Below are positions 8,397 to 63,339 of a stretch of DNA of 64,000 nt, piece by piece (position 1 is the stretch's first letter; the number at the start of each line of letters is the position of its first letter). The notes beneath the pieces were generated by a model. That model worked only from the letters and a program-made list of their open reading frames with translations, did no database searches and was not told the DNA's origin. The position numbers and the translations under genes are program-made. Source of the stretch: Actinomycetota bacterium (GTDB lineage Bacteria > Actinomycetota > Acidimicrobiia > Acidimicrobiales > Aldehydirespiratoraceae); contig JBCCWI010000011.1 of the NCBI GenBank assembly GCA_039193795.1, positions 796-64,795 of the forward strand. The letters run 5' to 3'.

Positions 8397-9653
8397 TCAG
8401 AGGGCGGTGCGGATCCGCTCCCGGAGTTCGACCATGTCGGCGTCGTTCCACAGGAACTCGATCTTCTGATCGGCGATCGTGTCGCCGGTCGGGCGGTCGT
8501 TGAGCACGAACACGGTGAACGTCTCCGCCAGGTCCTCGGCCGGGTTGGTGGTCGCGTAGTCGGTCACGAAGTCGTCCCGGTGCTCCTCGTAGAACCGGTC
8601 GAGGGCGTCCCAGTCCTCGTTCTCCTGCGCCGAGAAGATCTCGTCGATCTGGGCCCGGGGCCAGAACCGCTCGACGAACTCGTTCATCGTGCTGGACTTC
8701 AGCGAGCAGCCCTCACCGGTGTGATAGGTCGGGCAGCTCCCGTCGTCGAAGCTCGGCGGCACCTCTTCGGCCTGCAGGGTGAGCAGGTGGGCGAACTCGT
8801 GGATCAGCACCCAGTCCTCGTCGGCGCCCAGCCCGGGGCTGATGCCCATGTGCCACTTCGTCGGGTCGTTGTCGTCGGGGTAGACGTACCCTCCGCCGCC
8901 GCGTTCGGCGATCACCTCGAACCCGATCAGCATCTGTCGCTGTTCGGCCGGGATCAGCTCGACGAACCGCCGCCAGATCGCCTCGCCTTCGGCGACGGCG
9001 TCGGCATCGCCCGTCGTCGGGGTGATGCGATCGCCGTCGACCGTGAAGACCGCAGCGGTCTCGTCGAAGGCGCCGTCGTGGTGATCGTGGTCGCCGTCGA
9101 AGGATCCGTCGGCCTCGCCCTCCGGGACGATCCAGCCGTCGTCGTCGACGGTCCAGCCCGCCTCCTCGAGCATCGAGAAGAACTCCTCGTCGGAGAGTGC
9201 GTCGATCTCGGCGTCGGTCATGCCGGCGAAGGGATCGTCGCCGGGTTCGCCGGCAGGCGATGCGGGTTCGTCGGTCTCGACGGCCGTGTCGTCGGGTTCG
9301 ACGGCAGGCGATGCGGGTTCGTCGGGTTCGTCGCCGCCGTCGACGGTGGCGTCGGCCGGTGCGATCGTGACCTCGAGACCGAGCTCGGCGAGCTGGTCGG
9401 CGAGGTCGTCGAGGGTGACGGTGCCGAGATCGTCGGCGTCGCGGACGAGGTCGGCGACCGTGCGGTCGTTGCGATTCGTGCTTGCGGTCCCGGTGGTGTC
9501 GTCGGCTCGCAGGCTGGCGAGGCCGAGGCTCGCCACCGCCACGGTGCCCGCCACGCCCGCCGCGGCCAGCGTGCGGCGGCGAGGGCGGCGGGTCGTCGGT
9601 GCGGACGGCGGCTCGGCTGGTTCGGTGACGGGGGTGGGGGTGGGGGCGTCCAT
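8397..9653 (-). CDS. Secreted putative zinc metallopeptidase (HExxH) with an acidic repeat linker
   Basis: Only the C-terminal 418 aa of ORF 8397..10433 are credible; the rest is antisense to the response regulator. Start is MDAPTPTP at 9653. Tat-like signal TRRPRRRTLAAAGVAGTVAVASLGLA. Contains HEFAHLLT plus a downstream EDLAE. Confidence 0.6.
   Translation of the reverse strand: MDAPTPTPVTEPAEPPSAPTTRRPRRRTLAAAGVAGTVAVASLGLASLRADDTTGTASTNRNDRTVADLVRDADDLGTVTLDDLADQLAELGLEVTIAPADATVDGGDEPDEPASPAVEPDDTAVETDEPASPAGEPGDDPFAGMTDAEIDALSDEEFFSMLEEAGWTVDDDGWIVPEGEADGSFDGDHDHHDGAFDETAAVFTVDGDRITPTTGDADAVAEGEAIWRRFVELIPAEQRQMLIGFEVIAERGGGGYVYPDDNDPTKWHMGISPGLGADEDWVLIHEFAHLLTLQAEEVPPSFDDGSCPTYHTGEGCSLKSSTMNEFVERFWPRAQIDEIFSAQENEDWDALDRFYEEHRDDFVTDYATTNPAEDLAETFTVFVLNDRPTGDTIADQKIEFLWNDADMVELRERIRTAL
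9243..9325. repeat. Imperfect 51-nt tandem duplication inside the metallopeptidase gene (acidic EPASPAxEP peptide repeat)
   Basis: GGGTTCGcCGGCAGGCGATGCGGGTTCGTCGG at about 9243 recurs as GGGTTCGaCGGCAGGCGATGCGGGTTCGTCGG at about 9294. Confidence 0.6.
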
Positions 9654-9788
9654 CGGGGTTCCTCTCGGTCGTGGTGGGTGGACGCTTCGCACCCTGACGA
9701 TCCCTCCCTGAGAGACCGTTGAGCGATCTTGAGAGAACGCTGAGAACGGCTCCTCGTCGCCTGGGCCCGTCGCTGCGATCATGGACCC

Positions 9789-10463
9789 GTGCGTGTGCTC
9801 ATCGTCGAAGACGAACCCCTGATCGCCAAGGCCCTCGAGGCGGGTCTCACCGCGGACGGCTACGGCGTCGACATCGCCGACCGGGGCGACGTCGGGCTCT
9901 GGCAGGCGGTCGAGAACGACTACGACGCCATCATCCTCGACGTCATGCTGCCCGGCATGAACGGGTTCAAGGTGTGCAGCGAACTCCGCGCCACCGGCGA
10001 CACCACGCCGATCATGATGCTCACCGCCAAGGACGGCGAGTACGACCACGCCGAAGGCCTCGACACCGGTGCCGACGACTATGTGACCAAGCCCTTCTCG
10101 ATGGTGGTCGTGTCGGCCCGACTCCGTGCGCTGATCCGCCGGGGTCCGACGGAGCGGGCCGCCCGCCTCGAGGCCGGCGACCTGGTGCTCGATCCGGCGG
10201 ACCGCACCGTGCGCCGCGGCGACACCCCCATCGAACTCACCCCGCGCGAGTTCGGTCTGCTGCGATACCTGATGCATCGACGGGGCGAGCCGGTGTCGAA
10301 GCGGGAGCTCGTCGAGCATGTGTGGGCCGACGACGATCTCGAGGACAACGTGGTCCAGGTCTATGTCGGCTATCTGCGCCGCAAGGTCGACGAGCCGTTC
10401 GGCCGGACCGCCATCGAGACCGTCCGTGGTCACGGCTACCGCCTCGCTGCGGACGGTGGCTGA
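9789..10463 (+). CDS. OmpR/PhoB-family response regulator
   Basis: 224 aa. Receiver domain MRVLIVEDEPLIAKAL...DAIILDVMLPGMNG...TAKD. Winged-helix output LTPREFGLLRYLMHRRGEPVSKRELVEHVW...VRGHGYRL. Confidence 0.9.
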   Translation: MRVLIVEDEPLIAKALEAGLTADGYGVDIADRGDVGLWQAVENDYDAIILDVMLPGMNGFKVCSELRATGDTTPIMMLTAKDGEYDHAEGLDTGADDYVTKPFSMVVVSARLRALIRRGPTERAARLEAGDLVLDPADRTVRRGDTPIELTPREFGLLRYLMHRRGEPVSKRELVEHVWADDDLEDNVVQVYVGYLRRKVDEPFGRTAIETVRGHGYRLAADGG

Positions 10464-11779
10464 TGGGGTCGCTGCGGCGTCGACTCGGGATCGCGATCAG
10501 CGCCGGCGCCTTCGTCCTCACGGCGATCGCGGGCGTGGTCGTCGTCTACGAGCGTTGGCAGGAGGCGTTGTCGGCACTCCCCGAGGCGATCGACCTGGAG
10601 GCGTTCCGCCTCGCCGAGTCGACCGGTCTCAGCCTCGATGACCTGCCCGGTGACGACGGCTTCGCCCTGATGCTCGACGACGAGGGATCCGAACTCGCCT
10701 CGGTCGGCGACGTCGGCGACGAACTCTTCGACGTGCTGCTGTTCGACATCTGGGCGGAGACGACCATCCAGGATCTCGCCGTGAGCACCGGCCTCGAGAC
10801 CGACGCGGGCCTGGTGATCGCGACCGGGGTGGCCTGCACCGACACGGCCCGCTGCGACACGGTGGTGGTCGGGGCGACGGAGTTCTCGTTCTGGTCCTTC
10901 GCCGGGCCCCGGCTCGGTTGGGTGATCGGTCTCGCGACGGCGACCGCAGCCCTGACCCTGGTCGTGGTGCGGTGGCTCATCGGCCGGGCGTTGGAGCCGG
11001 TCGAGACGATGCGACAGGAACTCACGACGATCACTGCGACCGACCTCGACGCGCGGATCTCCGCCCCCGCGACCGGCGACGAGATCGAACGGCTCGGTCA
11101 CACGCTCGACGAGACGATCGGCCGGCTCGGGGCGGCCGTCGCGGCGAATGAACGGTTCGTCGCCGATGCCGCTCACGAACTGCGGAGCCCCATCACCGGC
11201 GTTCGAGCGGCCATCGAGGTCGAGGCGGCGGCCGGCGATCGTCCGCTGCTCGACGAGAGCATCCGCGAGCTCGATCGCGCCGGTCGGTTGGTCGACGACC
11301 TGCTGGTGCTCGCCCGTCGTCAAGGAGACGCTGCGCCGTCGGCCGAGGTCGATCTCGACGACGTCGGGCGCGCCGCGGTCGCCGCGTTCCTGGTCCGGCA
11401 TCCCGATGTCGAGATCGACGCCTCCTTCGCCCCGATCCGGGTTCGCGGGGACGCCGACGCACTCAACCGGGTGGTCACCAACCTGCTCGACAACGCGGCC
11501 CGCTACGGCGACGGGCAGATCCGCATCCAGGTACGGCAGAGCGCAAACCGGGCGGTTCTGCGCGTCGAGGACGATGGCCCGGGCATCCCGGTCGCCGACC
11601 GTGCGCGGGTGTTCGAACGATTCACCCGGCTCGACGAGTCGCGCGCCCGGGCCACCGGCGGGTCGGGGGGGGGCCGCGCCCGCCGGCGCGAGGGGGTGGA
11701 GGCGCACGGCGGCACCGTCGCCGTCGAGGGCCCCGACGGCGGTGGCGCCCATGTCGTGATCGAACTCCCGACGAGCTGA
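10463..11779 (+). CDS. Sensor histidine kinase (atypical G2 box)
   Basis: Start MGSLRRRLGIAISAGAFVL overlaps the regulator stop (TGATG). H-box HELRSPITGV, N-box LLDNAARYG, G1 DDGPGI. The expected GxGLGL is replaced by GGSGGGRARRRE ahead of VEAHGG. Confidence 0.8.
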   Translation: MGSLRRRLGIAISAGAFVLTAIAGVVVVYERWQEALSALPEAIDLEAFRLAESTGLSLDDLPGDDGFALMLDDEGSELASVGDVGDELFDVLLFDIWAETTIQDLAVSTGLETDAGLVIATGVACTDTARCDTVVVGATEFSFWSFAGPRLGWVIGLATATAALTLVVVRWLIGRALEPVETMRQELTTITATDLDARISAPATGDEIERLGHTLDETIGRLGAAVAANERFVADAAHELRSPITGVRAAIEVEAAAGDRPLLDESIRELDRAGRLVDDLLVLARRQGDAAPSAEVDLDDVGRAAVAAFLVRHPDVEIDASFAPIRVRGDADALNRVVTNLLDNAARYGDGQIRIQVRQSANRAVLRVEDDGPGIPVADRARVFERFTRLDESRARATGGSGGGRARRREGVEAHGGTVAVEGPDGGGAHVVIELPTS

Positions 11780-18547: not shown

Positions 18548-19096
18548 TCAGCGTGTCGCCTCGACGGCGGCGATGATCTCGTCGACGGCGGGTCGGTCGT
18601 CGGGGCCGGCGCCCCAGAAGCCCCACGCGAGCGTGCCGTCGGGACCGATCACCATGTCGCCACCGAGTTGCAGGGTGTCCTCGGTCGGCCGGGCGAGGTC
18701 ACGCCAGCCGCCATCGGCGAGCAGCTGGACGTAGCGACGGGCCGCCCGCCATCCCCAGACGCGGGTGATCGAGCCCCGCCCGAACCCATAGGCGCGGTAC
18801 GCCCGCCGGTCGGGATCGGTCAGCACCGGGAACGGGAGCATGGTGCGGATGATGTGATCCGACAGGTTCGCCGGATCGGTGAAGGTCACGAGCACGACCG
18901 TCGTGTCCGGTCCGAGATCGTCGAGCCGGTCGCGCACGGCGACGGCATGAGCCGTGCACGGGAGTCAATGGATGTGACGGTGGAAGATGACGACCACGGT
19001 CGAGCCCTGCTGATCGGTGAGTCGCCACGGCTCGCCATCGCCGTCGATGAGTTCGAGCGGTGGTGTGGGATCCCCGATGATCGGTCGAGTGGTCAT
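18548..19096 (-). CDS. PRX_like2 / AhpC-TSA-type thioredoxin-fold redoxin with in-frame UGA (candidate selenocysteine, U44) in a U-L-P-C motif
   Basis: Track ORF 18548..18937 lacks the family's redox motif. The same frame upstream from ATG 19094..19096 reads MTTRPIIGDPTPPLELIDGDGEPWRLTDQQGSTVVVIFHRHIH-TGA(18965..18967)-LPCTAHAVAVRDRLDDL... Downstream family motifs: FPVLTDPDRRAYRAYGF and LGGDMVIGPDGTL. Confidence 0.65.
18931..18960 (-). promoter_or_regulatory. SECIS-like hairpin directly 3' of the in-frame UGA
   Basis: The mRNA reads UGA CUCC then CGUGCACGGC-[UCAUGCCGUC]-GCCGUGCGCG. This is a 10-bp stem including one G.U. The loop starts 15 nt after the UGA. A mutually exclusive inner hairpin, ACGGC-UCAU-GCCGU, is also possible. 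Confidence 0.4.
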
Positions 19097-19200
19097 CGCT
19101 GCGCATCATGCCGTGCCCGGCGTCTTGAGCGGTCCCGGCCGGCCACGTACCGTTGGGACGCAGACCGTGTGGAGCGGCGAACCGAACGGAAGGGGATCCG

Positions 19201-20445
19201 ATGTCGGTCGATCATCGCAGCCGACGCCACGAGGATGTGGCCGATCTCGACGCGCTCGCCGCGTTCGATGAGTACATCCCCGACGCGATCGATCGCCACG
19301 GCGAGCTCGCAGCATGTGGGGTCGCCTCCAAGGGCCTGGCCCCGCTCGGCTTCGACCTCGGCGACCATCAGGCGACCCTCGTCGTCGACGGCGAGACGCT
19401 CGTGCTCGTCGACGGGCTCGAGCACGCAGGCGTCGTCGCTCACCTCCCCGCCGATGCGCTCTCCGATCTGCTCCAGGATCGCCAGTCGACCATGGGGCTG
19501 GCGATGACCGCCCGGGTCAAGATCGAGCGGGGCTCGCTCGACGACTGGATCCGCTGGGAACCGGCGTTGCGGGCGCTCCTCGACGGCCGCGCCGTGCACG
19601 AGTCGGGCGCCGTTGCGATGGTCGATGGCGACGGGGACCCCCTCGACCTCGACCGACGCTTCACCCTCGAGGACGATCGCGACGAGATGCGACACTTCCT
19701 CACCGAGGCGGGGTTCCTGCATCTCACCGGCGTGTTCGATCCCGACGAGATGGCCCGGATCGGGCACGACATCGACGAGTCGATCGCAGCCGCCGCCGAC
19801 GGCGATCCCGAGTACTGGTGGTGCACCAACAGCGACGGCGAGCAGGTCGCGGTCCGCAGCCTCAACTTCCAGGAGAAGTCCGAGGCCGTCCGTGCGGCGC
19901 TGACCGACGAACGGCTGCTCTGGTTGGGGGAACTGACCGGCGACGCCCACCGGGCCCCCACCACCTGTGAAGGGCTGGTCAAGCCCCTCGACATCGTGCA
20001 GGGCCTGTCGGATCTGCCGTGGCACAAGGACTGCGGGCAGGGGCTGCACAGCTACATGTGCAACAGCCTGACCGTCGGGATCTCCGTGACGGGCGCCGAT
20101 CGGGTCAGCGGCGCCCTCGGCGTGATCCCCGGGAGCCATCGCGCCAACACGGTCGCCTCGATGCGCGACCGGGACCTCGACCTGCCGAGCCGACTGCTCG
20201 AGACCACGACCGGCGACATCACCGTGCACTGCAGCGACACGCTGCATCGGGCGTACCCGCCCTCCGCACACCCCCGCAAGGTCGTCTACACCAGCTTCCG
20301 TCTCGCACCGCTGGACGGTGACGAGGAGAAGCCAAACCCCCGCTACAGCCGGTCGGCGCGCAGCGAGCTCACGAGTGTGCAGGACCGGATCGCCGCAGCG
20401 GACAACGCCGCCGCCGACAACCGGTACGTCCCGAGCAACGGGTGA
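19201..20445 (+). CDS. Phytanoyl-CoA dioxygenase (PhyH) family Fe(II)/2-oxoglutarate oxygenase with an N-terminal SCP2-like domain
   Basis: ATG at 19201 preceded by GGAAGGGGA. C-terminal half has LSDLPWHKDCG (HxD) and DITVHCSDTLHRAYP. The N-terminal half (...TMGLAMTARVKIERGSLDDWIRWEPAL) resembles the SCP2 sterol-carrier fold. Confidence 0.7.
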   Translation: MSVDHRSRRHEDVADLDALAAFDEYIPDAIDRHGELAACGVASKGLAPLGFDLGDHQATLVVDGETLVLVDGLEHAGVVAHLPADALSDLLQDRQSTMGLAMTARVKIERGSLDDWIRWEPALRALLDGRAVHESGAVAMVDGDGDPLDLDRRFTLEDDRDEMRHFLTEAGFLHLTGVFDPDEMARIGHDIDESIAAAADGDPEYWWCTNSDGEQVAVRSLNFQEKSEAVRAALTDERLLWLGELTGDAHRAPTTCEGLVKPLDIVQGLSDLPWHKDCGQGLHSYMCNSLTVGISVTGADRVSGALGVIPGSHRANTVASMRDRDLDLPSRLLETTTGDITVHCSDTLHRAYPPSAHPRKVVYTSFRLAPLDGDEEKPNPRYSRSARSELTSVQDRIAAADNAAADNRYVPSNG

Positions 20446-20499
20446 TTTTCTCGCGGGCTCGCGACGGAACCCCCCACCGTCGTTCGTTGGACGGGGTGT

Positions 20500-21027
20500 A
20501 TGGCTGCCGCACACGACGTTCCGATGGGTGATCCGACTCGCCTGTCGGAGATCTACGACGATGCCGTCGACGAGGTGTTCCGATATCTCCGGGCGCGCTG
20601 CGGCTCGGCAGTCCTCGCCGAGGAGCTGACCTCCGCGACCTTCGTGCAGGCCGCACTCGAGACGTCGCGTGGAACGGTGCCGGACCTCTCGGTTCGGTGG
20701 CTGGTCACCGTCGCCCGTCACAAGCTCGTCGACCACTGGCGCCGCGAGGCGATGGCCGACCGCAAGCTGGTGCTACTCGAAGGCGGCCGCATCGACACGG
20801 TCGACCCGTGGAACGCAGTGCTCGACGAAGCCCGCGCCCGACAGGTGCTGCTCGACATCGCCCCGACCTACCGCGCCGTGTTGACCCTGCGGTATCTCGA
20901 CGATCTGAGCGTGCCCGAGTGCGCCGAGCAACTCGGTAAGTCCGTCCACGCGACCGAGAGCGTGCTCGCGCGAGCCCGCAACGCCTTCCGAACCGCCTAC
21001 GAGCAGACCGGAGGTCATGATGACTGA
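20500..21027 (+). CDS. ECF-type RNA polymerase sigma-70 family factor
   Basis: 175 aa. EELTSATFVQAAL...WLVTVARHKLVDHWRR (region 2). YRAVLTLRYLDDLSVPECAEQLGKSVHATESVLARARNAFR (region 4). Confidence 0.8.
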   Translation: MAAAHDVPMGDPTRLSEIYDDAVDEVFRYLRARCGSAVLAEELTSATFVQAALETSRGTVPDLSVRWLVTVARHKLVDHWRREAMADRKLVLLEGGRIDTVDPWNAVLDEARARQVLLDIAPTYRAVLTLRYLDDLSVPECAEQLGKSVHATESVLARARNAFRTAYEQTGGHDD

Positions 21028-23981: not shown

Positions 23982-24009
23982 GGCGTTCTCCTCGTGACGC
24001 ACCGACCCG

Positions 24010-26430
24010 ATGCGGCGGCCCCACGTTTGCAGGCCCGCCGCCGTCGGGCCAGCCCACGATCGGTCGCCGGGCGGTGGTGGAGTGCGATACACAGTCGTCG
24101 TGTCGAATCGATCTCGGAGCATCGTGTCGTGGGTCGCGTTCGGGCTGGCGTTCGTGGTGGCCCTGGCCGCTGCGCCGGTGCTGTACGTCTCCACCGTGAT
24201 CGAGGAGGAGGACGCCTTCGTCTCGCTCACCGATGCGGTGATCGACCATCCCGACGTCCGCAGCGCGCTGGCCACCGAGGCGACCAACCTGACCTTCGAC
24301 GTGCTCGAAGCCGATGAGCTCGTCGCCGATCTGCTCCCTGAGCAGACACGGTCGATCGCCGTTCCGCTGACCCGGATCGCTGCCAACCAGGTCACCGATG
24401 CCGCCTTCGTGGTGCTCGACACGCCCGTCGGCGTCGACGCTCGACGCGCCGCGGTCCGCGAGCTCCACCGCCAGTTCCTGGCCGACGACGACTCCCTCGT
24501 CATCGACTTGCGCGCCGTGCTGGTTCGCACCGCTCGCGAGCTCGGTGGGCCGGCGGTCGGCGCCGGAGCCGCCAAGTTGGTCGCCGACACCGAGACCGGA
24601 CGCTTCGTCATCGTCGACGAAGGATCCTCGGAGCAGGATCTGCTCGCTGCGGTCCGTGCCATCCCCGTACTCGGGGTGGCGCTGTTCCTCGTCGCCTTCG
24701 TCCTGTGGGCACTCGGGGTCCTGGTCGCGCCCGATCGCCGGGCCGCGCTCATCCGGGCTGCGGTGCTCAACGCCATCGCGTCCGTCGTCGCGATCGTCAT
24801 CGTGGCGATCGCCCTGTACGGCGTGCTCGGGATGATCGGGGAGGGTTCGCCGTCGGCGTTCGCGGTCGCCGAGGTCGTCACCCAGGACTTCATCCGGCTC
24901 CAGTGGGGGACCATCCTGTCGTCGTTGGCGGTCGCGCTCGCCGCCATGCTCCTCGGTGATCGCGTCGCTGCGGTCGCGCTGCGGCGCCTGCCCGGCGAGC
25001 TCTGGCGGCGCTCGCCCGATCGCTGGCACACGATCGCCGACATCATCGGCGACAACGCCGCCCTGGCACGGATCGTCGTGTGGGCGATGGGCGCGCTCAC
25101 GCTGGTCGGTTGGCGCAACCCGACCGTGCGCGTGGTGCTGACCGTCGTCGTGCTCACCGGCGCCGCCCACGGGGTGATCTGGCTGCTGACCGCGGCCAGC
25201 CCGCTCGCCGCGCGGGCGCGCGCTCGGCTCGGCGCGCCCGGGACCTATGTGGACCCGACGAGTTCACGAGCCCGCCGGCTTCGGCTCAACGCGGCCGGCA
25301 CCGTCGCGGTGATCGCGGTGTTCTGGCCTGCGTGGAGCCGTGACGTGTTCATCACCTTGTTCGTGGCACTGGCCGTCGTGTTCGTGCTGATCGACGTCCG
25401 CACCGCCTGGACGACGGCCCGGGCGGCGGACCGGCTCGCCGTCGCCGATGTGGCCGACGAGGGCTGGTCGCGTCGACGCAGCCTCATGGTCGCGTTCGGC
25501 GTCTCGCTCGCGCTCGTCGTCGTCGGTGCGCTCTTCACCGGCTCCGCCGACGATCGGGTGGCGGCGAGCACCGGCTGCAACGGCGCCGACGAACTGTGTG
25601 ATCGAGCGATCGACGAGATCGTGTTCGCCGGTTCGCACAACGCGATGTCGTCGACCGATCTCGGTTGGCAACTCGCCATGCAGACGGGCGACATCGTGAC
25701 CCAGCTCGACCACGGTGTTCGCGCCCTCCTCATCGACGCCCTCTATTGGCGGGCCGAGGGGGTGGTCGAAGGCGGCGACGACGCGGCCGCCGCTGCGGTG
25801 ATCGAGGCGTCGCTGTCCAACGACGAGCCGCGGGCGGGCACCTGGTTGTGCCACGGATTCTGCGCCCTCGGTGCCACCGACCTCACCGCCGGCCTCGCCG
25901 ACATCTCGCTGTGGCTCGATGCCAACCCGCGCGAAATCCTGCTCATCATCGTGCAGGACGAGATCTCCACGCCGGATCTCGAGGCCGCGTTCGAGGCGAG
26001 CGGGCTCCGAGACCATGTGCACATCCATGAGCCGGGTACGGCCTGGCCCACCCTCGGGGCGCTCATCGACGCCGACGAACGGGTGCTCGTGTGGGGTGAG
26101 AACGGTGGTAGCCCCGACAGCTGGTTCCAGAACGTCTGGGACACCGATTTCACCGAGACGCCCTTCGCCTTCGGCCTGCGCAGCGACTTCTCCTGCGCTC
26201 CGAATCGAGGCGACGACGCGAACGATCTCTTCCTCATCAATCATTGGCTCACCAACGGCATCCCGGTGCGGGAGATCGCGTCGTCGGTCAACAGCCGTGA
26301 GGCCCTGCTCGAACGCGTCGCGGATTGTGAGGCGGAGCGCGGGCGTCGGCCCACGATCCTCGCCGTGGACTTCGTCGAGACCGGCGATCTCGTCGCGACC
26401 GTCGCCGAGCTGAACGAGGTGGACGGTTGA
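24010..26430 (+). CDS. Polytopic membrane protein with a C-terminal PLC-like phosphodiesterase (PI-PLC X-domain-like) domain
   Basis: 806-aa ORF; the start is uncertain. Several TM segments. C-terminal domain: CDRAIDEIVFAGSHNAMSS...LDHGVRALLIDALYW...WLCHGFC...LLIIVQDE...FLINHW. Confidence 0.55.
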   Translation: MRRPHVCRPAAVGPAHDRSPGGGGVRYTVVVSNRSRSIVSWVAFGLAFVVALAAAPVLYVSTVIEEEDAFVSLTDAVIDHPDVRSALATEATNLTFDVLEADELVADLLPEQTRSIAVPLTRIAANQVTDAAFVVLDTPVGVDARRAAVRELHRQFLADDDSLVIDLRAVLVRTARELGGPAVGAGAAKLVADTETGRFVIVDEGSSEQDLLAAVRAIPVLGVALFLVAFVLWALGVLVAPDRRAALIRAAVLNAIASVVAIVIVAIALYGVLGMIGEGSPSAFAVAEVVTQDFIRLQWGTILSSLAVALAAMLLGDRVAAVALRRLPGELWRRSPDRWHTIADIIGDNAALARIVVWAMGALTLVGWRNPTVRVVLTVVVLTGAAHGVIWLLTAASPLAARARARLGAPGTYVDPTSSRARRLRLNAAGTVAVIAVFWPAWSRDVFITLFVALAVVFVLIDVRTAWTTARAADRLAVADVADEGWSRRRSLMVAFGVSLALVVVGALFTGSADDRVAASTGCNGADELCDRAIDEIVFAGSHNAMSSTDLGWQLAMQTGDIVTQLDHGVRALLIDALYWRAEGVVEGGDDAAAAAVIEASLSNDEPRAGTWLCHGFCALGATDLTAGLADISLWLDANPREILLIIVQDEISTPDLEAAFEASGLRDHVHIHEPGTAWPTLGALIDADERVLVWGENGGSPDSWFQNVWDTDFTETPFAFGLRSDFSCAPNRGDDANDLFLINHWLTNGIPVREIASSVNSREALLERVADCEAERGRRPTILAVDFVETGDLVATVAELNEVDG

Positions 26431-36074: not shown

Positions 36075-36322
36075 TGAGCCTGCGCATCCCCTGCCCGACC
36101 TGTGGTCCGCTGCCCATCGACCACTGGGTCCACGGCGAGATCCCCGTGGTGCCCGACTCCATCACCGACCCGGACGCCCGCGACGTCGATCGCGGGTACA
36201 TGCACGCGAACGAAGCGGGAGTCGTCCGGGAGGCGTGGTTCTGTCTCGGTGGCTGCCGGCGCTGGGTCACGCTGTGGCGCGACACCCGGACCGACACCTT
36301 CGTCGACCCGTCCTCAGACTGA
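36074..36322 (+). CDS. Sarcosine oxidase delta-subunit-like zinc-ribbon protein
   Basis: 82 aa. MSLRIPCPTCGPLPIDHWVHGE...WFCLGGCRRWVTLWRDTRT (Cys4 pattern). The ATG overlaps the beta-subunit stop. Confidence 0.75.
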   Translation: MSLRIPCPTCGPLPIDHWVHGEIPVVPDSITDPDARDVDRGYMHANEAGVVREAWFCLGGCRRWVTLWRDTRTDTFVDPSSD

Positions 36323-36886
36323 TCGGCCGATCGTTCGCAGGAACCGCGTCTGCGGGTCGGCGGCGGCGCCGTGCACGACGGCCTCGGCGAAGTGGGTCGA
36401 CGTCTCCAGCATGTCGCGTTCGGCATCGGCCACCTCGAGCGCGACCTGCAGCGCAGCAGGGTCGAGGGTGACCGCGCGGTCGAGGGCGGCGGCGATGTCC
36501 CACGTGTGGCCCAGCTGGTCGAACACGCGGAAGCCGATGAAGCGGCGAGCGGGGATGGCGCCGACCGGATGATCGACCGTGCGGTCGAGTGACCCGGCGA
36601 AGGCGTCGCGTGTCGAGGCGGCTGCGTCGGCGACCGCACCGGACGGGTCGTCGCCGAGATGATCGACGCCGATGACGGCTTCGATCGCCTCGTCGAGTCC
36701 GCCTCCGGCGAGAAGGATCGGTGCGAAACGATCCCCTCCCACGACGTGCTCGACGACGTCGCGGACCGTCCAGCCCTCGCACATCGACGAACGGTCCCAG
36801 TCGCCGTCGCCGAGTTCGGCCACCACCGCGGCGAAGCCCGCCATCGCACGAGCCATCGCGTCTCGAAGCTCGTCGTCGGTGGCCAT
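36314..36886 (-). CDS. DinB/MDMPI-type (mycothiol-dependent maleylpyruvate isomerase N-terminal domain, TIGR03086-like) protein
   Basis: 190 aa. DWDRSSMCEGWTVRDVVEHVVGGDRF...FDQLGHTWDIAAAL. Confidence 0.65.
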   Translation of the reverse strand: MATDDELRDAMARAMAGFAAVVAELGDGDWDRSSMCEGWTVRDVVEHVVGGDRFAPILLAGGGLDEAIEAVIGVDHLGDDPSGAVADAAASTRDAFAGSLDRTVDHPVGAIPARRFIGFRVFDQLGHTWDIAAALDRAVTLDPAALQVALEVADAERDMLETSTHFAEAVVHGAAADPQTRFLRTIGRSV

Positions 36887-36895
36887 GGAGGGACG

Positions 36896-38089
36896 TTAGT
36901 CGTCGAGGAGGGCCCCCACGCTGGGCGAGTGGGCCACCCGTCGTTCGTTCACGTAGGCCTCGTGGTTCTCCGCGAGCGTGTCGAGGTCGTAGAGATAGTT
37001 CACGAGGACACCGAACGACTCGGCGTCGCCCTTCGCCGACGGATCACCGGCGACGTTGATCTGCTCGAGCCGGGCGCCGTTGCGCAGATGGAACCGGGCG
37101 ACCGGATCGAACGGCTCGCCTCGGCGCTTGGCGGTGAGGAGATACCGGGCGGTGAGCGCCCGGAGCCCGTCGTCGGAGTGATCGACCTCGATCCCCTCGG
37201 CGTCGACCCACCGGCGCAGACCGGGGACCGGGGAGAGGGTCGAGAAGCGCTCCAGGCTCGGCACCGTGGCCCGCAACTCCTCGGTGACCTGCTTGATCAG
37301 GAAGTCGCCGAGCGGGATGCCGCGCAGGCCGGCCTGACAGTTGGTGATCGAGTAGAAGATGGCGGTGTCGGCCGGGTCGAGGCCGTCCGGGTCGGTGAGG
37401 TCGTCGTCGGGCACGGGCGCATCGATCACGTCGGTGATGCGTGTCGCCAGACCGTGCACGAGGGCGATCTCGACGAAGATCAGCGGCTCGGCCGGCAGGG
37501 ATGGGTGAAAGAAGCCGTAGCAGCGACGATCGGATTCGAGTCGCCGGCGCAGGTCGTCCCAGCCGCGGATCTCGTGCACCGCCTCGTACTCGATCAGCTT
37601 CTCCAGCGTCTCGGCCGGCGTGTTCCAGTCGATCGCCCGTAGCTCGAGGAACCCGCGGTTGAACCACGATGCGAGCAGATAGGCGAGGTCACCCTCGGCC
37701 GGGGCGAGCCGCTCGTCGCGCAGACGCAGCAGATCGGCCCGCATGGTGAGCAGGGTGTGGATGCCGTCGGCGGCGAGGTTGATCGACCGGAAGAGTTCGA
37801 GCCGGGGTGCTTCGGCGGCCTGCCAGAGACGGTGGACCGAGGAGGGGCCCGGGTCGTCGCGCCAGGCGGCGACAGCGGCCGTCACCGCGCTCGGGTCGGG
37901 CGCGAAGTCATCGACGAGGAAGCCGAAGAAGGCCGCCTTGGCGGCGTCGTCGCCCTGGCGGGTGAGGGTGGCGTACCGACGCGCGACGAGCTCGGCCAGG
38001 CTTCGGGCCGCGGCCTCGTCGCGCAGCCGGGTGAGGGCCCGGCAGGTCTCACGAAGGACGGCGAGTTCGGGGTTGGTCGCCTCGCTCAC
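36896..38089 (-). CDS. Malonyl-CoA decarboxylase
   Basis: The ORF is 36896..38182; the likely GTG start is at 38089 (VSEATNPEL). LLASWFNRGFLELRAIDWNTPAETLEKLIEYEAVHEIRGWDDLRRRL...FFHPSLPAEPLIFVEIAL...AIFYSITNCQAGLRGIPLGDFLIKQV. Confidence 0.8.
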   Translation of the reverse strand: MSEATNPELAVLRETCRALTRLRDEAAARSLAELVARRYATLTRQGDDAAKAAFFGFLVDDFAPDPSAVTAAVAAWRDDPGPSSVHRLWQAAEAPRLELFRSINLAADGIHTLLTMRADLLRLRDERLAPAEGDLAYLLASWFNRGFLELRAIDWNTPAETLEKLIEYEAVHEIRGWDDLRRRLESDRRCYGFFHPSLPAEPLIFVEIALVHGLATRITDVIDAPVPDDDLTDPDGLDPADTAIFYSITNCQAGLRGIPLGDFLIKQVTEELRATVPSLERFSTLSPVPGLRRWVDAEGIEVDHSDDGLRALTARYLLTAKRRGEPFDPVARFHLRNGARLEQINVAGDPSAKGDAESFGVLVNYLYDLDTLAENHEAYVNERRVAHSPSVGALLDD

Positions 38090-38150
38090 CCCATCCAGTG
38101 TACGGCAGTTAGCCGATGGCTGACCGATCGAGCCCCTACGCTGAACGGCG

Positions 38151-39656
38151 ATGGCCGGGTTGACGACGATGCCGAAGCCCACCGCGGGGGACCTCGTCGC
38201 GGGGATCTCGGTGGCTCTCGTCGCGCTGCCCCAGTCGCTCGCCTACGCGGAGATCGCCGGCCTGCCGCCCCAGTACGGCCTCTTCGCATCGGCACTGCCC
38301 GCCATCCTCGCCGCCTTCTTCGTGTCGTCGCGCTATCTCCAGACCGGGCCGGTCGCGCTGACCGCGCTGTTGACCTACGGCGCCCTCGAACCGCTCGCCG
38401 AACCCGAATCGGCCGACTTCATCGCCCTCGCGGCCGAGCTCGCCCTGCTCGTGGGAGTGTTCCGCATCCTGCTGGGCCTCCTGCGGCTGGGCGGAGTCGC
38501 CTACCTGCTCTCGGATCCGGTGCTCACCGGGTTCACGACCGGCGCCGCGATCTTGATCACGTCGAGCCAGCTTCCCAAGGTCTTCGACGTCGCCACCGAC
38601 GACCAGGGGGTCCTCGCCGACGCGTGGCAGGCGATCTCGTCGCCGGGCGACTGGCACTGGCCGGCGGTGGGATTCTCCGTGCTGACCCTCGTCGCGATGT
38701 TCGGAGGCCGTCGGCTGCACGCGCTGTTCCCCGGCGTGCTCGTCGCCGTGATCGTCGGGGTGGTCATCAGTTCGGCGACGAGCTACTCGGGCTCGACGAT
38801 CGGCGAGCTCGATGGCGGGTTCGTCTCGCTCTCCTTCGACTTCCCGTGGGACCGCACCGGCGACCTGATCCTGCCCGCGCTCGTGATCGCGCTCGTCGGC
38901 TTCGCCGAGCCGTCGTCGATCGCCCGCACCTTCGCGGCCCAGGAGCGCGAGCCCTGGAACGCGAATCAGGAGATGGTGAGTCAGGGGGTGGCGAATCTCG
39001 CGTCGGCGGTCTCGGGGGCGTTCCCGGTCGGCGGCTCGTTCAGTCGCAGTTCGCTGAACAAGCTGGCCGGTGCCCGGACGGCGTGGGCCGGCGCCTTCAC
39101 CGGCGGCTTCGTGCTGCTGGCGCTGCCGCTCACCCCGCTGCTCGAGGACCTGCCCAACGCCATCCTCGGCGCGATCGTCGTGGGCGCGGTCGCGAAGCTC
39201 ATCCGGCTCGACGAGTTGATCGCGCTGGCGCGTGCCAACTGGATCCAGGCGATCGTCGGCTTCGGCACGCTCACCGCGACGATCTTCTCGGCCCCACGCG
39301 TCGAGCGGGGTGTCGTGATCGGGGTCGTCCTGGCCCTGCTGGTGCACCTCTACCGTGAGCTCACGATCACCAGCCCGTTCCTGCGGGTCGAGAACACGCT
39401 GACGATCGCACCGGAGGGTGTGCTCTGGTTCGCCACCATTCCCGGCGTCGAGCGCCAGATCCGCTCGCACTCCGCGGAGTACGAGGAGCTCGAGCGGATC
39501 GTGCTCGACCTCGCCGGGGTCGGTCGCCTCGACTACTCCGCTGCGGCGGCGCTTCGTCGCATCGTCGAGGAGATGCGGGAGGCCGACATCGAGGTCGAGA
39601 TCATCAACGTGCGGCAGGGTGCTGCCCGCGGGGCGGCGCTCCACCTGCTCGACTGA
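38151..39656 (+). CDS. SulP family sulfate/anion permease with C-terminal STAS domain
   Basis: 501 aa. DLVAGISVALVALPQSLAYAEIAGLPPQYGLF. The C-terminal STAS-like segment is RIVLDLAGVGRLDYSAAAALRRIVEEM. Confidence 0.9.
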   Translation: MAGLTTMPKPTAGDLVAGISVALVALPQSLAYAEIAGLPPQYGLFASALPAILAAFFVSSRYLQTGPVALTALLTYGALEPLAEPESADFIALAAELALLVGVFRILLGLLRLGGVAYLLSDPVLTGFTTGAAILITSSQLPKVFDVATDDQGVLADAWQAISSPGDWHWPAVGFSVLTLVAMFGGRRLHALFPGVLVAVIVGVVISSATSYSGSTIGELDGGFVSLSFDFPWDRTGDLILPALVIALVGFAEPSSIARTFAAQEREPWNANQEMVSQGVANLASAVSGAFPVGGSFSRSSLNKLAGARTAWAGAFTGGFVLLALPLTPLLEDLPNAILGAIVVGAVAKLIRLDELIALARANWIQAIVGFGTLTATIFSAPRVERGVVIGVVLALLVHLYRELTITSPFLRVENTLTIAPEGVLWFATIPGVERQIRSHSAEYEELERIVLDLAGVGRLDYSAAAALRRIVEEMREADIEVEIINVRQGAARGAALHLLD

Positions 39657-46389: not shown

Positions 46390-46746
46390 TCAGAGTTCGA
46401 ACGTGGCGCGGGTGAGGACCTCGCCCTCGGTGATCTCGGCGGTCGCCTCACGACGCGTGCCGAACAGCCAGACCGCGCCGTCGGGATCGGCCTCGAGGTT
46501 CTTGATCCACTGGGAGTCGCGCCGCACGGTCGACACGTCGATGCGATCGCCGATGCGGGTTGCCAGCAGCGGGACTTCGCGGGTCTTGCCGCTCTTGCGG
46601 CCGGTCGTCTCGACGACCACGACGCCGACACCGATCGGCAGTGGCGACGTGAGGCCGGCCTTGGCGAGGGGGCGAACGACCGAGTTCAGCGTGCGGAAGC
46701 CCTGCTGGACGGCCGTCTTCTGGAGTTCTTCGAAGAGGGGGATCAC
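46390..46746 (-). CDS. Deazaflavin (F420)-dependent nitroreductase family (DDN-like) small oxidoreductase
   Basis: 118 aa. [47 protein letters not shown] fits the split-barrel DDN-type family. Confidence 0.65.
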
Positions 46747-46755
46747 CCCTCCAGG

Positions 46756-47475
46756 CTACGGGAAGGCGACCTCGTCGAGGAACCAGTCGACCAGGCGGTG
46801 GCAGCGTTCGGTGTTGCCGGCCTCGCGTTCGGTCATCTCGGCCACCATCTCCTCGGGCACCACGCCGATCTCGGCCAGGTAGTCCGGCGGCGCCTCGCGC
46901 AGGAACCCGCGGACGTGCCCGACGTCGACCTCGGGGTGGAACTGGGTGCCGACGGATCGACCGATGCGGATCAGCTGGGTCGACGAGCCGTTGCGGGCCA
47001 GCACCTCGGCCTCGGCGGGCGGATGAAAGCGGTCGTGGTGCCACTCGAACCACGGGCCGTCCGCGAGGACGGCGGGTGCGCCGTCGACGGGCTCGAGGTC
47101 GTACCAGCCGACCTCGGTCACCGGCGCGACCTCGACCGATCCGCCGAGGGCGTCTGCGATCAGCTGACCGCCGAAGCAGACGCCCAGGATCGGCTGGTCG
47201 GCGCTGACCGATCGACGGATCTCGGCCAGTTCGTCGTGGACCCAGTGGGAGATGGCGTCCTTGTCGGCGAGCGAGCGCACCGAGCCCATCAGCACCACCA
47301 GGTCGAAGTCGGCCCAGTCGGGCCAGGGCTCGAACTCCTGTGGCTCGTCGTAGTCGGCGGTGAGCACGTGGGTGTGGACGGTGAAGCCGCGTTCGGCCAG
47401 ACGGACCCCGACCTGCCCGCTCGGACCGTCGGGCTCGTGGGCGATGACCAGGGCGGTGCGGTGGGGGTCGCTCAC
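46756..47475 (-). CDS. Class I glutamine amidotransferase-like protein
   Basis: GTG start at 47475 (VSDPHRTALVIAHEPDG) overlaps the upstream stop. Contains ILGVCFGGQLIADALGG and GTQFHPEVD. Confidence 0.75.
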   Translation of the reverse strand: MSDPHRTALVIAHEPDGPSGQVGVRLAERGFTVHTHVLTADYDEPQEFEPWPDWADFDLVVLMGSVRSLADKDAISHWVHDELAEIRRSVSADQPILGVCFGGQLIADALGGSVEVAPVTEVGWYDLEPVDGAPAVLADGPWFEWHHDRFHPPAEAEVLARNGSSTQLIRIGRSVGTQFHPEVDVGHVRGFLREAPPDYLAEIGVVPEEMVAEMTEREAGNTERCHRLVDWFLDEVAFP

Positions 47476-48332
47476 AGGTCGAACCACACGTGAGCCTGGC
47501 CGGTGCCCGACACCGACTCGTACGCCCCGAACTGGGTGCCCTTGGCCGTGCACGTCGCGCCGCCGAGCGCCCCGACCATCGTGAGGTAGTGGCCGAAGTA
47601 GCCCTCGGGCGCGTGCTGACCGTACTCAGGCACGAAGTCGAGGATGGCGGCGTGGTCGCCGGCCTTCATCCACTCGAGCACCTGGCGGTCGGCGGCACAC
47701 GCCTCCGGCGTGCGGACGTGGAGGTCGGGGTCGGCGGCCTCGTGGTCCCGGAACTGGCGCAGCGGCCAGAACCGGTGGCTGAGCCCACCCGACGCGAGGA
47801 TCACGACCCGACGGTCGAGGCCGGCGATCGCTTCGGCGAGCAGCTGGCCGAACAGGAGGAAGTCGTACGGCTCGCCGGTCTGGACGACGCCGGCCGAGAG
47901 CCAGCGCTCGTCACCCTGGAGGAAGGGCAGGAGGTTGATCGTCGGGTAGTGCACCGGAAGGTACGGGTCGTCGATCGGGGTGATCCAGGTGTCGTCTCGA
48001 CGCTCGCCTGCGGCCGCCCAGGCTTCGGCGAGCTCGCGATCGCCGGGCATGTCGTAGGGCATCTGTCGCATCCCGCGGGGGAGTTCCTCGGAGGTGTAGA
48101 TCCCGGTTCGGCGGTCGTGGCTGGCCACGATGTGCTCGATCGTGGTGAACCAGTGCGTGTCGATCACGACGACGGTGTCGGCCTGCGCCGGCCCGAGCTT
48201 CTCGGACCGGAGGTCGTGGAGACCCTGGAACAGGCTGGTGTCCTCGCCGTCGTTGAGTTCCCGCCGGATCTGCTCGGGCAGGACGAGGGGTGGGACGTGG
48301 GAGACGAGTGCGGCGCCGACGATGCTTCCCAT
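47472..48332 (-). CDS. Class III (LigB-type) extradiol ring-cleavage dioxygenase
   Basis: 286 aa. MGSIVGAALVSHVPPL..., VVIDTHWF, PVHYPTINLLPF and ILASGGLSHRFWPL. Confidence 0.8.
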   Translation of the reverse strand: MGSIVGAALVSHVPPLVLPEQIRRELNDGEDTSLFQGLHDLRSEKLGPAQADTVVVIDTHWFTTIEHIVASHDRRTGIYTSEELPRGMRQMPYDMPGDRELAEAWAAAGERRDDTWITPIDDPYLPVHYPTINLLPFLQGDERWLSAGVVQTGEPYDFLLFGQLLAEAIAGLDRRVVILASGGLSHRFWPLRQFRDHEAADPDLHVRTPEACAADRQVLEWMKAGDHAAILDFVPEYGQHAPEGYFGHYLTMVGALGGATCTAKGTQFGAYESVSGTGQAHVWFDL

Positions 48333-62373: not shown

Positions 62374-63339
62374 TCACCACTCGAGGCGGCGGACGGAGGC
62401 TCCTTCGGTCGCCGCCTCGAGGAACGCTCTGGCCTCCTCGAGCACGACGCGTTGGCGCTCGGCATCGCCAGGTGGGCCGAGCGGACGGCCGAGGGGTTGC
62501 GGGGTCAGCACGAGTCGAGGGATCGACATCGGGATCATGCGGCCGGCGAACGTCTCCGACGCGATCATGACCGTCGGGATTCCGGCCGCTTCGAGCAGGC
62601 GTGCGACGTGCCCCACGGACACGTGGCAGACCGGTCAAAGGGGGACGAGGAACGCCGCTTCGATCCCGTCGGTCCGGAACTGCTCGACCCACTCGGGGCC
62701 GGTCTTCTTGGTGAGGCGGACCTGTGAGCAGGCGCCGACGAAGGAGAAGGCACCGGCGTACTCGCCGAGCGCGCCGTCGGCGGCCCACGCCTCCATGTGG
62801 TCGATCGGGAGGCCGACGTTGTGGTCGAGCTGCGCCCCTTCGATCGGGTAGCCGCCGTGGCGGACGCGCAGCTGGTCACCCGTCGTGCCCGGAGGGATCG
62901 ACGACAGCGACGGCGCCTCCTTGAGGAAGTCCTGGATGCGTTCGACCGCTTCGTCCTGGGTCATGTCGGCGACGCCGAACGGTTCGGGGTCGTCGCCGTC
63001 GAGGAAGTGGCCGCTCGATGTGACCAGGGCGACCTTACGCTCGGAGAGCGGCGACGACAGCGGGGTGAACGGGGCGTCGTCGTAGCTGAACTGGCCGGGT
63101 TTGTCGTAGGCCCTGACCTGCCAGTCCTTGAGGAAGAGCGCCATCTCCCGAGCTCGTTCGTCGGTGCCGTCGGCGACGGTCACCGCATGACGGATCAGTT
63201 CTTCGAAGAAGGTGGCGGCGTCGGCCTCGTCGAGCGCGGCCAGGAACTTGGCATCGAGGTTGGTGCGGGTGCTGTAGGAGAAGGAGTTCTTGAAGGCCTC
63301 GAACGTCTCCGGTGTCGGCTGGTCCTGCTCATCGCTCAT
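62374..63339 (-). CDS. GrdB/PrdB-family (glycine/sarcosine/betaine/D-proline reductase selenoprotein B-like) protein with in-frame UGA (candidate Sec, about U235) in a U-P-V-C motif
   Basis: Track ORFs 62635..63381 and 62374..62622 are in the same frame, separated only by TGA (62635..62637). The joined reading is ...GIEAAFLVPL-U-PVCHVSVGHVARLLEAAGIPTVMIASETFAGRMIPMSIPRLVLTPQPLGRPLGPPGDAERQRVVLEEARAFL... This parallels the GrdB region around Sec as I recall it (..ILTST-U-GTCTRCGATMVKEIERAGIPVVH....RIVP...PHPLGNP...). The likely start is the ATG at 63339 (MSDEQDQ). Confidence 0.65.
62602..62628 (-). promoter_or_regulatory. SECIS-like hairpin 3' of the in-frame UGA
   Basis: The mRNA reads UGA CCGGUC then UGCCACGUG-[UCCGUGGGG]-CACGUCGCA. 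This gives 8 pairs plus one C.C mismatch. The G-rich 9-nt loop begins 16 nt after the UGA. A shorter alternative is CCACG-UGUC-CGUGG. Confidence 0.35.

Follow-up and report, generated by a model that had tools for sequence, protein, structure and literature searches.

A peroxiredoxin (Prx)-like gene lies on the minus strand of the 64,000-nucleotide (nt) stretch analyzed here (contig JBCCWI010000011.1 of an Actinomycetota bacterium; the whole stretch is called the window), and its frame is interrupted by a TGA codon within the redox motif. The question is whether this codon ends translation or is read as selenocysteine (Sec, U). The comparisons described below indicate that the in-frame UGA at 18965-18967 is very probably the Sec codon of a thioredoxin-fold redoxin. 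The gene and its key codons are as follows.

18548 to 19096, minus strand: putative read-through coding sequence of a Prx-like selenoprotein, 182 amino acids plus stop, M1...H43-U44-L45-P46-C47...R182.
18965 to 18967, minus strand: probable Sec codon UGA, codon 44, in the context CAU-UGA-CUC, with TGA in 83 of 83 loci and cysteine (Cys) in full-length homologues.
18956 to 18958, minus strand: codon of Cys47, the likely resolving partner of U44 in U-x-x-C, with Cys in 83 of 83 loci and an alignment to structures 3drn and 3hjp.
18935 to 18937, minus strand: GTG (V54), the artificial start of a truncated 129-residue 'AhpC/TSA family protein' in the open reading frame (ORF) list and in the GenBank annotation.

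The minus-strand frame runs from ATG 19094-19096 to the stop TGA 18548-18550 and contains a single in-frame TGA, at codon 44, where the motif reads FHRHIH-U-LPC. The original prediction had described this frame, its ATG, the internal TGA and the U-L-P-C motif, and the sequence translated exactly as quoted there. Upstream, the frame is closed by an in-frame TGA at 19106-19108, so that ATG 19096 is the earliest possible start. The GTG at which the mechanical ORF 18548..18937 opens had been regarded as an artificial start, and this was borne out: it is the internal codon V54, situated inside the apical loop of the candidate selenocysteine insertion sequence (SECIS) described below. In GenBank the locus of the window is annotated as 'MAG: AhpC/TSA family protein [Actinomycetota bacterium]' (P0001), where MAG stands for metagenome-assembled genome.

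The conservation of the TGA was evaluated in a scan of one genome per GTDB species, which gave 176 relatives, and the best 80 were kept for locus comparison. These belong to Acidimicrobiales, Ilumatobacteraceae, Ca. Microthrix, one Miltoncostaea, and one 'Gammaproteobacteria' MAG, with 48-74% protein identity. The tblastn matches in these 80 genomes cross the TGA and span query residues 1-182. At the codon-44 column, TGA was present in all 83 loci, including that of the window, while TAA, TAG, or a sense codon was found in none, and the motif across the loci is [IV]FHRH[ILSTV]x-TGA-[LV][PS]C. Two orthologues located on contigs of 3.6 Mb and 3.1 Mb both read ...IFHRHIH*LPC... in one frame. The orthologue with the label 'uncultured Gammaproteobacteria bacterium' (CAXMSE010000103.1) is of the Acidimicrobiia type, with 62% identity and the same TGA and candidate SECIS, and its contig is probably mis-binned.

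The same boundary is visible in the protein databases. A search with the product in which U was replaced by C retrieved 258 homologues, and nearly all of the 120 best are 126-147 residues long, correspond to the C-terminal ~70% of the query, and share 56-82% identity with it; the exceptions are three entries of 117, 122, and 167 residues. This common truncation is characteristic of gene callers halting at the same place in every genome. In addition, 1.84 billion cluster representatives were scanned with the C-terminal ORF P0001, giving 708 matches, and by our count about 130 of the best 150 (31-63% identity) have 110-146 residues and the same start point. Three distant members (31-39% identity, 35-59% GC) have TGA in the same column at the DNA level, within the motifs FHRHFH*LPC, FHRHLA*LMC, and FLRHLA*LLC. 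The few full-length homologues carry Cys at this column (P0137, P0164, P0175, P0178, P0190, and P0237; HRHLA-C-LPC and similar), and two full-length representatives carry Ser instead; P0137 shares 47% identity with the window product over 176 residues. The UGA column thus aligned with Cys in full-length homologues, as the idea of a replaced cysteine implies, and among close relatives, where TGA occupied 83 of 83 loci, there was no intact Cys form.

On the 5' side of the UGA, residues are conserved (W24, G8, P12, F38-H-R-H41) and synonymous sites vary, as would be expected of translated sequence. A plain nonsense mutation, which the original prediction had named as the alternative, was set aside, since TGA is present in 83 of 83 orthologous loci and both flanks evolve as coding sequence. 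More generally, the UGA might be a true stop, either in a pseudogene or in a split gene that yields a 43-residue peptide and/or a separately initiated 129-residue C-terminal protein. The gene callers and the GenBank record, which annotate the 129-residue ORF only, agree with this explanation, as does the fact that TGA is the commonest stop codon of the organism, judged from the window ORFs. However, an active-site stop in 83 of 83 species at 48-74% identity, combined with purifying selection on 43 upstream codons, is incompatible with decay. The 129-residue product would be devoid of the fold's beta-strands and of the redox motif, the GTG taken as its 'start' encodes an internal Val and falls in a conserved hairpin loop, and neither TAA nor TAG ever occurs at the UGA column. 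We consider a true stop extremely improbable. A reassigned genetic code does not apply either, because about three quarters of the window ORFs use TGA as their ordinary stop.

The nucleotides next to the UGA show preferences of their own. The preceding His codon (18968-18970) is CAT in 69 of 72 orthologues, while the other His codons of the gene prefer CAC, and the following Leu codon (18962-18964) is always CTN and never TTG in the orthologue alignment (A2; 81 sequences, ungapped). As a consequence of the constant CTN codon, the base after the UGA is invariably C. The CAT bias and the UGA-C context suggest selection on the nucleotides that flank the recoding site.

With U replaced by C, the product matched Pfam AhpC-TSA (PF00578; 8.5e-17, 61.7 bits against a gathering threshold of 26), AhpC-TSA_2 (PF13911; 42.7 bits against a threshold of 27), and Redoxin, which is consistent with the AhpC/TSA, Prx-like thioredoxin-fold assignment proposed originally. 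The best NCBIfam match was NF040769, 'SelL-related redox protein' (9.2e-34), with 167 of 173 model positions aligned. The score of 116.6 bits lies below the curated cutoff of 120, so the protein is a close relative of this family and not a certified member. The PF13911 and NF040769 matches agree with the original assignment to PRX_like2 (cd02970). In the alignment with BCP/PrxQ proteins (3drn, 3hjp), U44 falls on the Thr of the peroxiredoxin motif T-x-x-C(P) and C47 on the peroxidatic Cys, and the canonical pattern PxxxTxxC is broken by U44 in the Thr position. The claim that UGA replaces the catalytic Cys therefore holds in part: U takes the place of the first Cys of a CxxC-type motif, but the catalytic Cys of peroxiredoxins aligns with C47.

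The fold was modeled on the Cys homologue P0137. Its alignment-based AlphaFold (AF2) model reached a predicted local distance difference test (pLDDT) score of 95.6, as compared with 42 for a model from the single sequence. In the former, the first Cys is predicted to follow strand 32-36 and to stand directly before helix 43-54, which in this model is the classical position of a thioredoxin-fold CxxC motif. The best Foldseek matches in the PDB were Bcp4, AhpE, BcpB, and ResA. The protein is therefore a CxxC-type Prx-like, SelL-related redoxin of the AhpC/TSA group and not a canonical TxxC peroxiredoxin. U44-L-P-C47 would be an active-site motif that forms a selenenylsulfide, and the mature protein would most likely be an oxidoreductase of the thiol-disulfide or peroxide-reducing kind, in which Sec would make the nucleophilic attack and Cys47 would serve for resolution. 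Any function more specific than Sec-dependent thiol/disulfide or peroxide redox chemistry is inference.

These properties can be compared with those of several known systems. SelL, the SelL-related family NF040769, and the window protein share the Prx-like thioredoxin fold and the location of the redox motif within it. Two Sec residues are present in SelL, in a U-x-x-U motif that forms a diselenide, whereas the second motif position of the window family is Cys (TGC or TGT) in 83 of 83 loci, so the protein is not SelL proper. BCP/PrxQ, AhpE, and ResA have the same fold as the window family (Foldseek TM-score 0.72-0.88, normalized to the target, for the P0137 model), can be aligned by sequence over residues 7-130, and show 16-25% identity. 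In contrast to the T-x-x-Cp motif of canonical peroxiredoxins, the window protein has U-x-x-C. Since this motif resembles the ResA-like CxxC type, peroxidase activity should not be assumed.

In marine metagenomes, UxxC Prx-like (PF00578) and UxxC PrdB-like proteins have been reported among the most abundant selenoprotein families (PMC2398784). A 2026 review gives the Prx-like thiol:disulfide oxidoreductases as 'predicted with high confidence' (PMC13188914), and both Prx-like and PrdB-like selenoproteins appear in that review and in Table S3 of another catalogue (PMC5029168). In the Global Ocean Sampling (GOS) and Sargasso Sea selenoproteomes, the family is represented by 'Prx-like 1', for which 225 Sec forms and 2,740 Cys homologues were recorded in GOS (PMC2398784). 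Prx-like 1 selenoproteins and the window gene have in common the AhpC/TSA domain, U-x-x-C at the start of helix alpha1, and an origin in environmental or marine bacteria; in both cases detection relied on the pairing of Sec and Cys forms, and a bacterial SECIS or candidate SECIS is located immediately downstream of the UGA. This likeness does not imply the same subfamily. Moreover, Sec forms outnumber Cys forms in the window clade, as judged from the roughly 130 of the best 150 cluster representatives that are truncated at the UGA, whereas Cys forms are the majority in GOS Prx-like 1. Such a large excess of Sec forms over Cys forms in the subfamily is mildly unusual.

If UGA is decoded as Sec, a SECIS would be expected in the mRNA just behind it. 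Two mutually exclusive hairpins were found there.

18925 to 18946, minus strand: candidate SECIS hairpin of 8 base pairs (bp) with loop CGUGC, to which synonymous suppression, covariation, and excess folding energy point.
18931 to 18960, minus strand: hairpin of 10 bp with a 10-nt loop, the minimum free energy (MFE) structure in the window sequence, not conserved, and mutually exclusive with hairpin 18946-18925.

In the candidate SECIS, positions 18946-18939 pair with 18933-18929 and 18927-18925 (5+3 bp) and C18928 is bulged. The 5' arm GCCGUCGC pairs with GCGAC(C)GGC, and the apical loop CGUGC occupies 18938-18934. The hairpin begins 18 nt downstream of the UGA and overlaps the 3' arm of hairpin 18931-18960. 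Its energy is -11.1 kcal/mol, the UGA-to-loop distance is 26 nt, and the loop of 5 nt has G in second position, followed by U. The published constraints on bacterial SECIS elements are an apical loop of 3-9 nt, an upper stem of 4-16 bp, a G among the first two loop positions, and a UGA-to-loop distance of 16-37 nt, with an MFE of at most -7.5 kcal/mol (PMC13188914), and hairpin 18946-18925 satisfies all four of them.

Three independent signals in the orthologue alignment, namely synonymous suppression, covariation, and folding energy, support this hairpin. Synonymous variation is suppressed at V52 (GTC in 52 of 53), A53 (GCC in 66 of 79), V54 (GTG in 66 of 79), and R55 (CGC in 51 of 52). Synonymous entropy at V52-R55 is 0.14-0.80, whereas most of the gene's remaining Val, Ala, and Arg codons reach 1.2-1.9. 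The top mutual-information pair in the alignment consists of column 27 (third base of Ala51) and column 45 (third base of Arg57), where the states C/G (30), G/C (21), and G/U (7) were observed. An 8-bp stem accommodates this pairing in two forms, one without interruption (GCG...CGC) and one with a single bulged C (GCC...C-GGC). The two columns are compatible in 59 of 82 sequences, compared with 34.8 expected by permutation, and among the 12 nearest-neighbour pairs with a difference at column 27, 7 show compensation; the pair 28-42 occurs as G-C, G-U, and A-U types. Base-pair probabilities averaged over the 81 sequences favour the same helix. Folding energies were also calculated in windows along the gene and compared with those of synonymous codons resampled from the family's own usage. 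Columns 25-48 were the only place with excess structure (mean -11.0 versus -7.1 kcal/mol, mean z -1.4), with z < -1 in 72% of sequences against roughly 10-35%, typically about 20%, in other windows, and the signal disappears when columns 25-27 are left out. Two distant members (L085 and L088) form hairpins at the equivalent position with the loops AGUU and GGUCG. These comparisons indicate that hairpin 18946-18925 is conserved and under selection, and it takes the place of 18931-18960 as the SECIS candidate.

Other pairings suggested by the alignment were rejected. A long-range lower stem between columns 8-17 and 52-61, indicated by base-pair probabilities, had no excess over resampling in 19-codon windows. 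Similarly, a 5' hairpin of columns 9-16 with 22-29 (18962-18955/18949-18942 in the window) showed on average no excess over synonymous resampling. The latter, an 8-bp hairpin (CCGUGUG...CACGCGG), is the MFE fold in some orthologues, such as L003 and L083, and the Pro and Cys codons of orthologues are often jointly CCG-TGT or CCC-TGC, as seen by eye.

The SECIS proposed originally was the 10-bp stem at 18931-18960, which is present as described and starts 4 nt past the UGA; its fit to bacterial SECIS geometry did not hold, and it is not conserved. The hairpin is composed of a 5' arm (18960-18951), a loop (18950-18941), and a 3' arm (18940-18931), has 10 bp including one G-U pair, and has an energy of about -18 to -19.5 kcal/mol. 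Two features favour it as the functional SECIS, its standing as the MFE structure in the window sequence and its position immediately after the UGA. For its composition, the 76-nt region that holds it shows no exceptional stability (z = -1.78; 8 of 200 shuffled versions fold equally well). Against its being the SECIS, pairing is lost in 39 of 81 orthologues at 12-39 and in 62 of 81 at 18-33, two of the ten pairs in the stem, and in both of them a freely varying third-codon position faces a fixed C residue in the alignment. Windows over the hairpin do not exceed their synonymously resampled counterparts in stability (z = -0.06), and three of the four constraints are violated, namely by the loop of 10 nt, by the loop start UC, and by the UGA-to-loop distance of 14 nt, where 3-9 nt, a G among the first two loop positions, and 16-37 nt are called for. 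Established ribosome footprint sizes place the first 9-10 nt after the A-site codon inside the mRNA channel, and at least half of the 5' arm of this stem would therefore be enclosed in the ribosome when the UGA is in the A site. On these grounds, a role of hairpin 18931-18960 as the SECIS of the gene appears very unlikely.

The following sequence of events is proposed, with hairpin 18946-18925 as the SECIS. While the UGA is decoded, the stem 18931-18960 would be partly unwound in the ribosome and, because its 5' arm would lie largely in the mRNA channel, would be unable to compete, leaving the downstream hairpin free to form. With the ribosome at UGA 18965-18967, this hairpin would recruit SelB with Sec-tRNA(Sec), and Sec would be inserted in place of termination at codon 44.

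Several results weigh against this interpretation. In the window sequence, hairpin 18931-18960 exceeds the conserved one in stability (about -18 versus -11 kcal/mol). RNAalifold on the orthologue alignment returned a weak 3-bp consensus at best, and the covariation consists mainly of one column pair plus a register shift in sequences that are phylogenetically related. Rfam at gathering thresholds gave 0 matches over the window, a null result that is expected since bacterial SECIS elements are poorly modeled there. None of selA, selB, and selD is among the 40 Pfam-annotated ORFs of the 64-kb window, and ARAGORN found neither a tRNA-Sec nor any other tRNA in it; in 60 related loci scanned with the same program, the flanking sequence held no tRNA-Sec.

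The Sec-decoding machinery has been described in related bacteria. Ilumatobacter coccineus, I. nonamiensis, and Ca. Microthrix parvicella have SelD, SelA, and SelB, with 15, 10, and 7 selenoproteins, respectively, and Acidimicrobium ferrooxidans has no selenoproteins (PMC5029168, Tables S1-S2). All 84 of 84 complete Actinomarina genomes contain selC, selA, selD, and a divergent selB (bioRxiv 10.64898/2026.04.03.716425). Among the database homologues, P0193 (230 residues) is a Cys-form Prx-like protein whose first ~90 residues resemble, by eye, the GTPase domain of SelB (GHIDHGKT...DVPGHERF), joined at 'LACLPC'. An assembly or frameshift error may have produced a chimera here, or selB may really lie next to a gene of this family.

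The UGA might also be recoded to a residue other than Sec, either to Cys by a selC-like tRNA(Cys) or, through near-cognate read-through at a weak UGA-C context, to Trp or Cys. A selC-like tRNA(Cys) with a UCA anticodon occurs in a few Actinobacteria. The conservation of the UGA demonstrates recoding and not the identity of the inserted residue, the base after the UGA is always C, and the tRNA, SelA, and SelD of the MAG itself were not seen in the 64 kb of the window. However, the insertion of Cys would leave little reason for TGA to persist in 83 of 83 lineages instead of drifting to TGC or TGT. Cultured Acidimicrobiia relatives possess SelA, SelB, and SelD; known Sec proteins share this motif, fold, and family, and a structured element of SECIS geometry is under selection. 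There is only a slim chance that a residue other than Sec is inserted, and Sec remains our preferred reading.

A second gene with a conserved UGA was identified in the window.

62374 to 63339, minus strand: PrdB/GrdB-like candidate selenoprotein of 321 amino acids, TGA at 62635-62637, matching PF07355 and TIGR04483.

Its motif is LVPL-U-PVCHVS, and the product matched GRDB (PF07355, 5.5e-10) and PrdB (TIGR04483, 9.7e-23). It resembles the PrdB/GrdB selenoprotein B family in these two matches and in its U-x-x-C motif, but its scores are far under the equivalog cutoffs. GenBank holds only the 234-residue N-terminal part. Most homologues end at the same UGA, and the rare full-length ones read LVPV-C-PVC. 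An 8-bp hairpin with a GUG loop follows the UGA, and its apical loop starts 18 nt past the codon. Neither grdA, prdA, nor another reductase partner was present among the neighbouring ORFs scanned, and the adjacent ORF codes for a sulfatase. This gene provides independent evidence that the organism decodes UGA as Sec.

Three further pairs of adjacent ORFs in the same frame were rejected as candidate selenoprotein genes of the window. The ORFs 19129-20445 and 20446-21027 on the plus strand (a PhyH-like dioxygenase and an extracytoplasmic function (ECF) sigma factor, separated by TGA 20443-20445) code for unrelated domains, and the second has candidate starts of its own. The pairs 36314-36895 with 36896-38242 and 46390-46755 with 46756-47625 are parted by TAA and TAG, respectively.

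It is possible, although we hold this tentatively and think it rather unlikely, that the Acidimicrobiia clade and its relatives with low or intermediate GC (31-60% identity) constitute a distinct, almost obligately Sec-containing, SelL-related subfamily that catalogues and pipelines have missed. Such a subfamily would have its own SECIS type, with the GUG apical loop that is also found in the PrdB-like gene, and the extra 10-bp hairpin might modulate Sec insertion in this one organism.

Marine UxxC Prx-like selenoproteins are already known, and the window gene adds one within a well-known class; knowledge of Sec decoding and of Prx-like selenoproteins is unchanged by the finding. Its consequences concern annotation and the lineage. 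At least about 120 orthologues are recorded in databases as N-terminally truncated 'AhpC/TSA family proteins' without an active site, the same truncation affects more than 100 further cluster representatives, and the annotation of the PrdB-like gene also breaks off at its UGA. Recognition of both UGA genes suggests that this uncultured Actinomycetota lineage uses selenium, which adds to the evidence for rich selenoproteomes in Acidimicrobiia. In addition, the compact candidate SECIS (22 nt, loop CGUGC) offers a testable element for a high-GC Gram-positive lineage, where bacterial SECIS elements are poorly modeled.

Elsewhere in the window, the ORFs 8400-10496 (minus strand) and 23998-26427 (plus strand), of 699 and 810 residues, have a strong coding signature in third-position GC content (GC3) and no Pfam match at E <= 1e-5. 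The Prx-like gene is flanked downstream by an enoyl-CoA hydratase gene and on the other side by the divergently transcribed PhyH-like dioxygenase gene, and clustering of neighbour genes across the loci revealed no operon partner with strong conservation. In 14 of 81 loci (L001 10501-10968, L002 10393-10866, and 12 more), a gene for a PEMT/ICMT-like membrane methyltransferase immediately follows the Prx-like gene and overlaps its stop, an arrangement that is absent from the window itself. Beta-lactamase-rhodanese fusions are located near the Prx-like gene in 12 loci, and a sulfate permease and a GntR regulator near several. These neighbours could reflect a link to sulfur metabolism.

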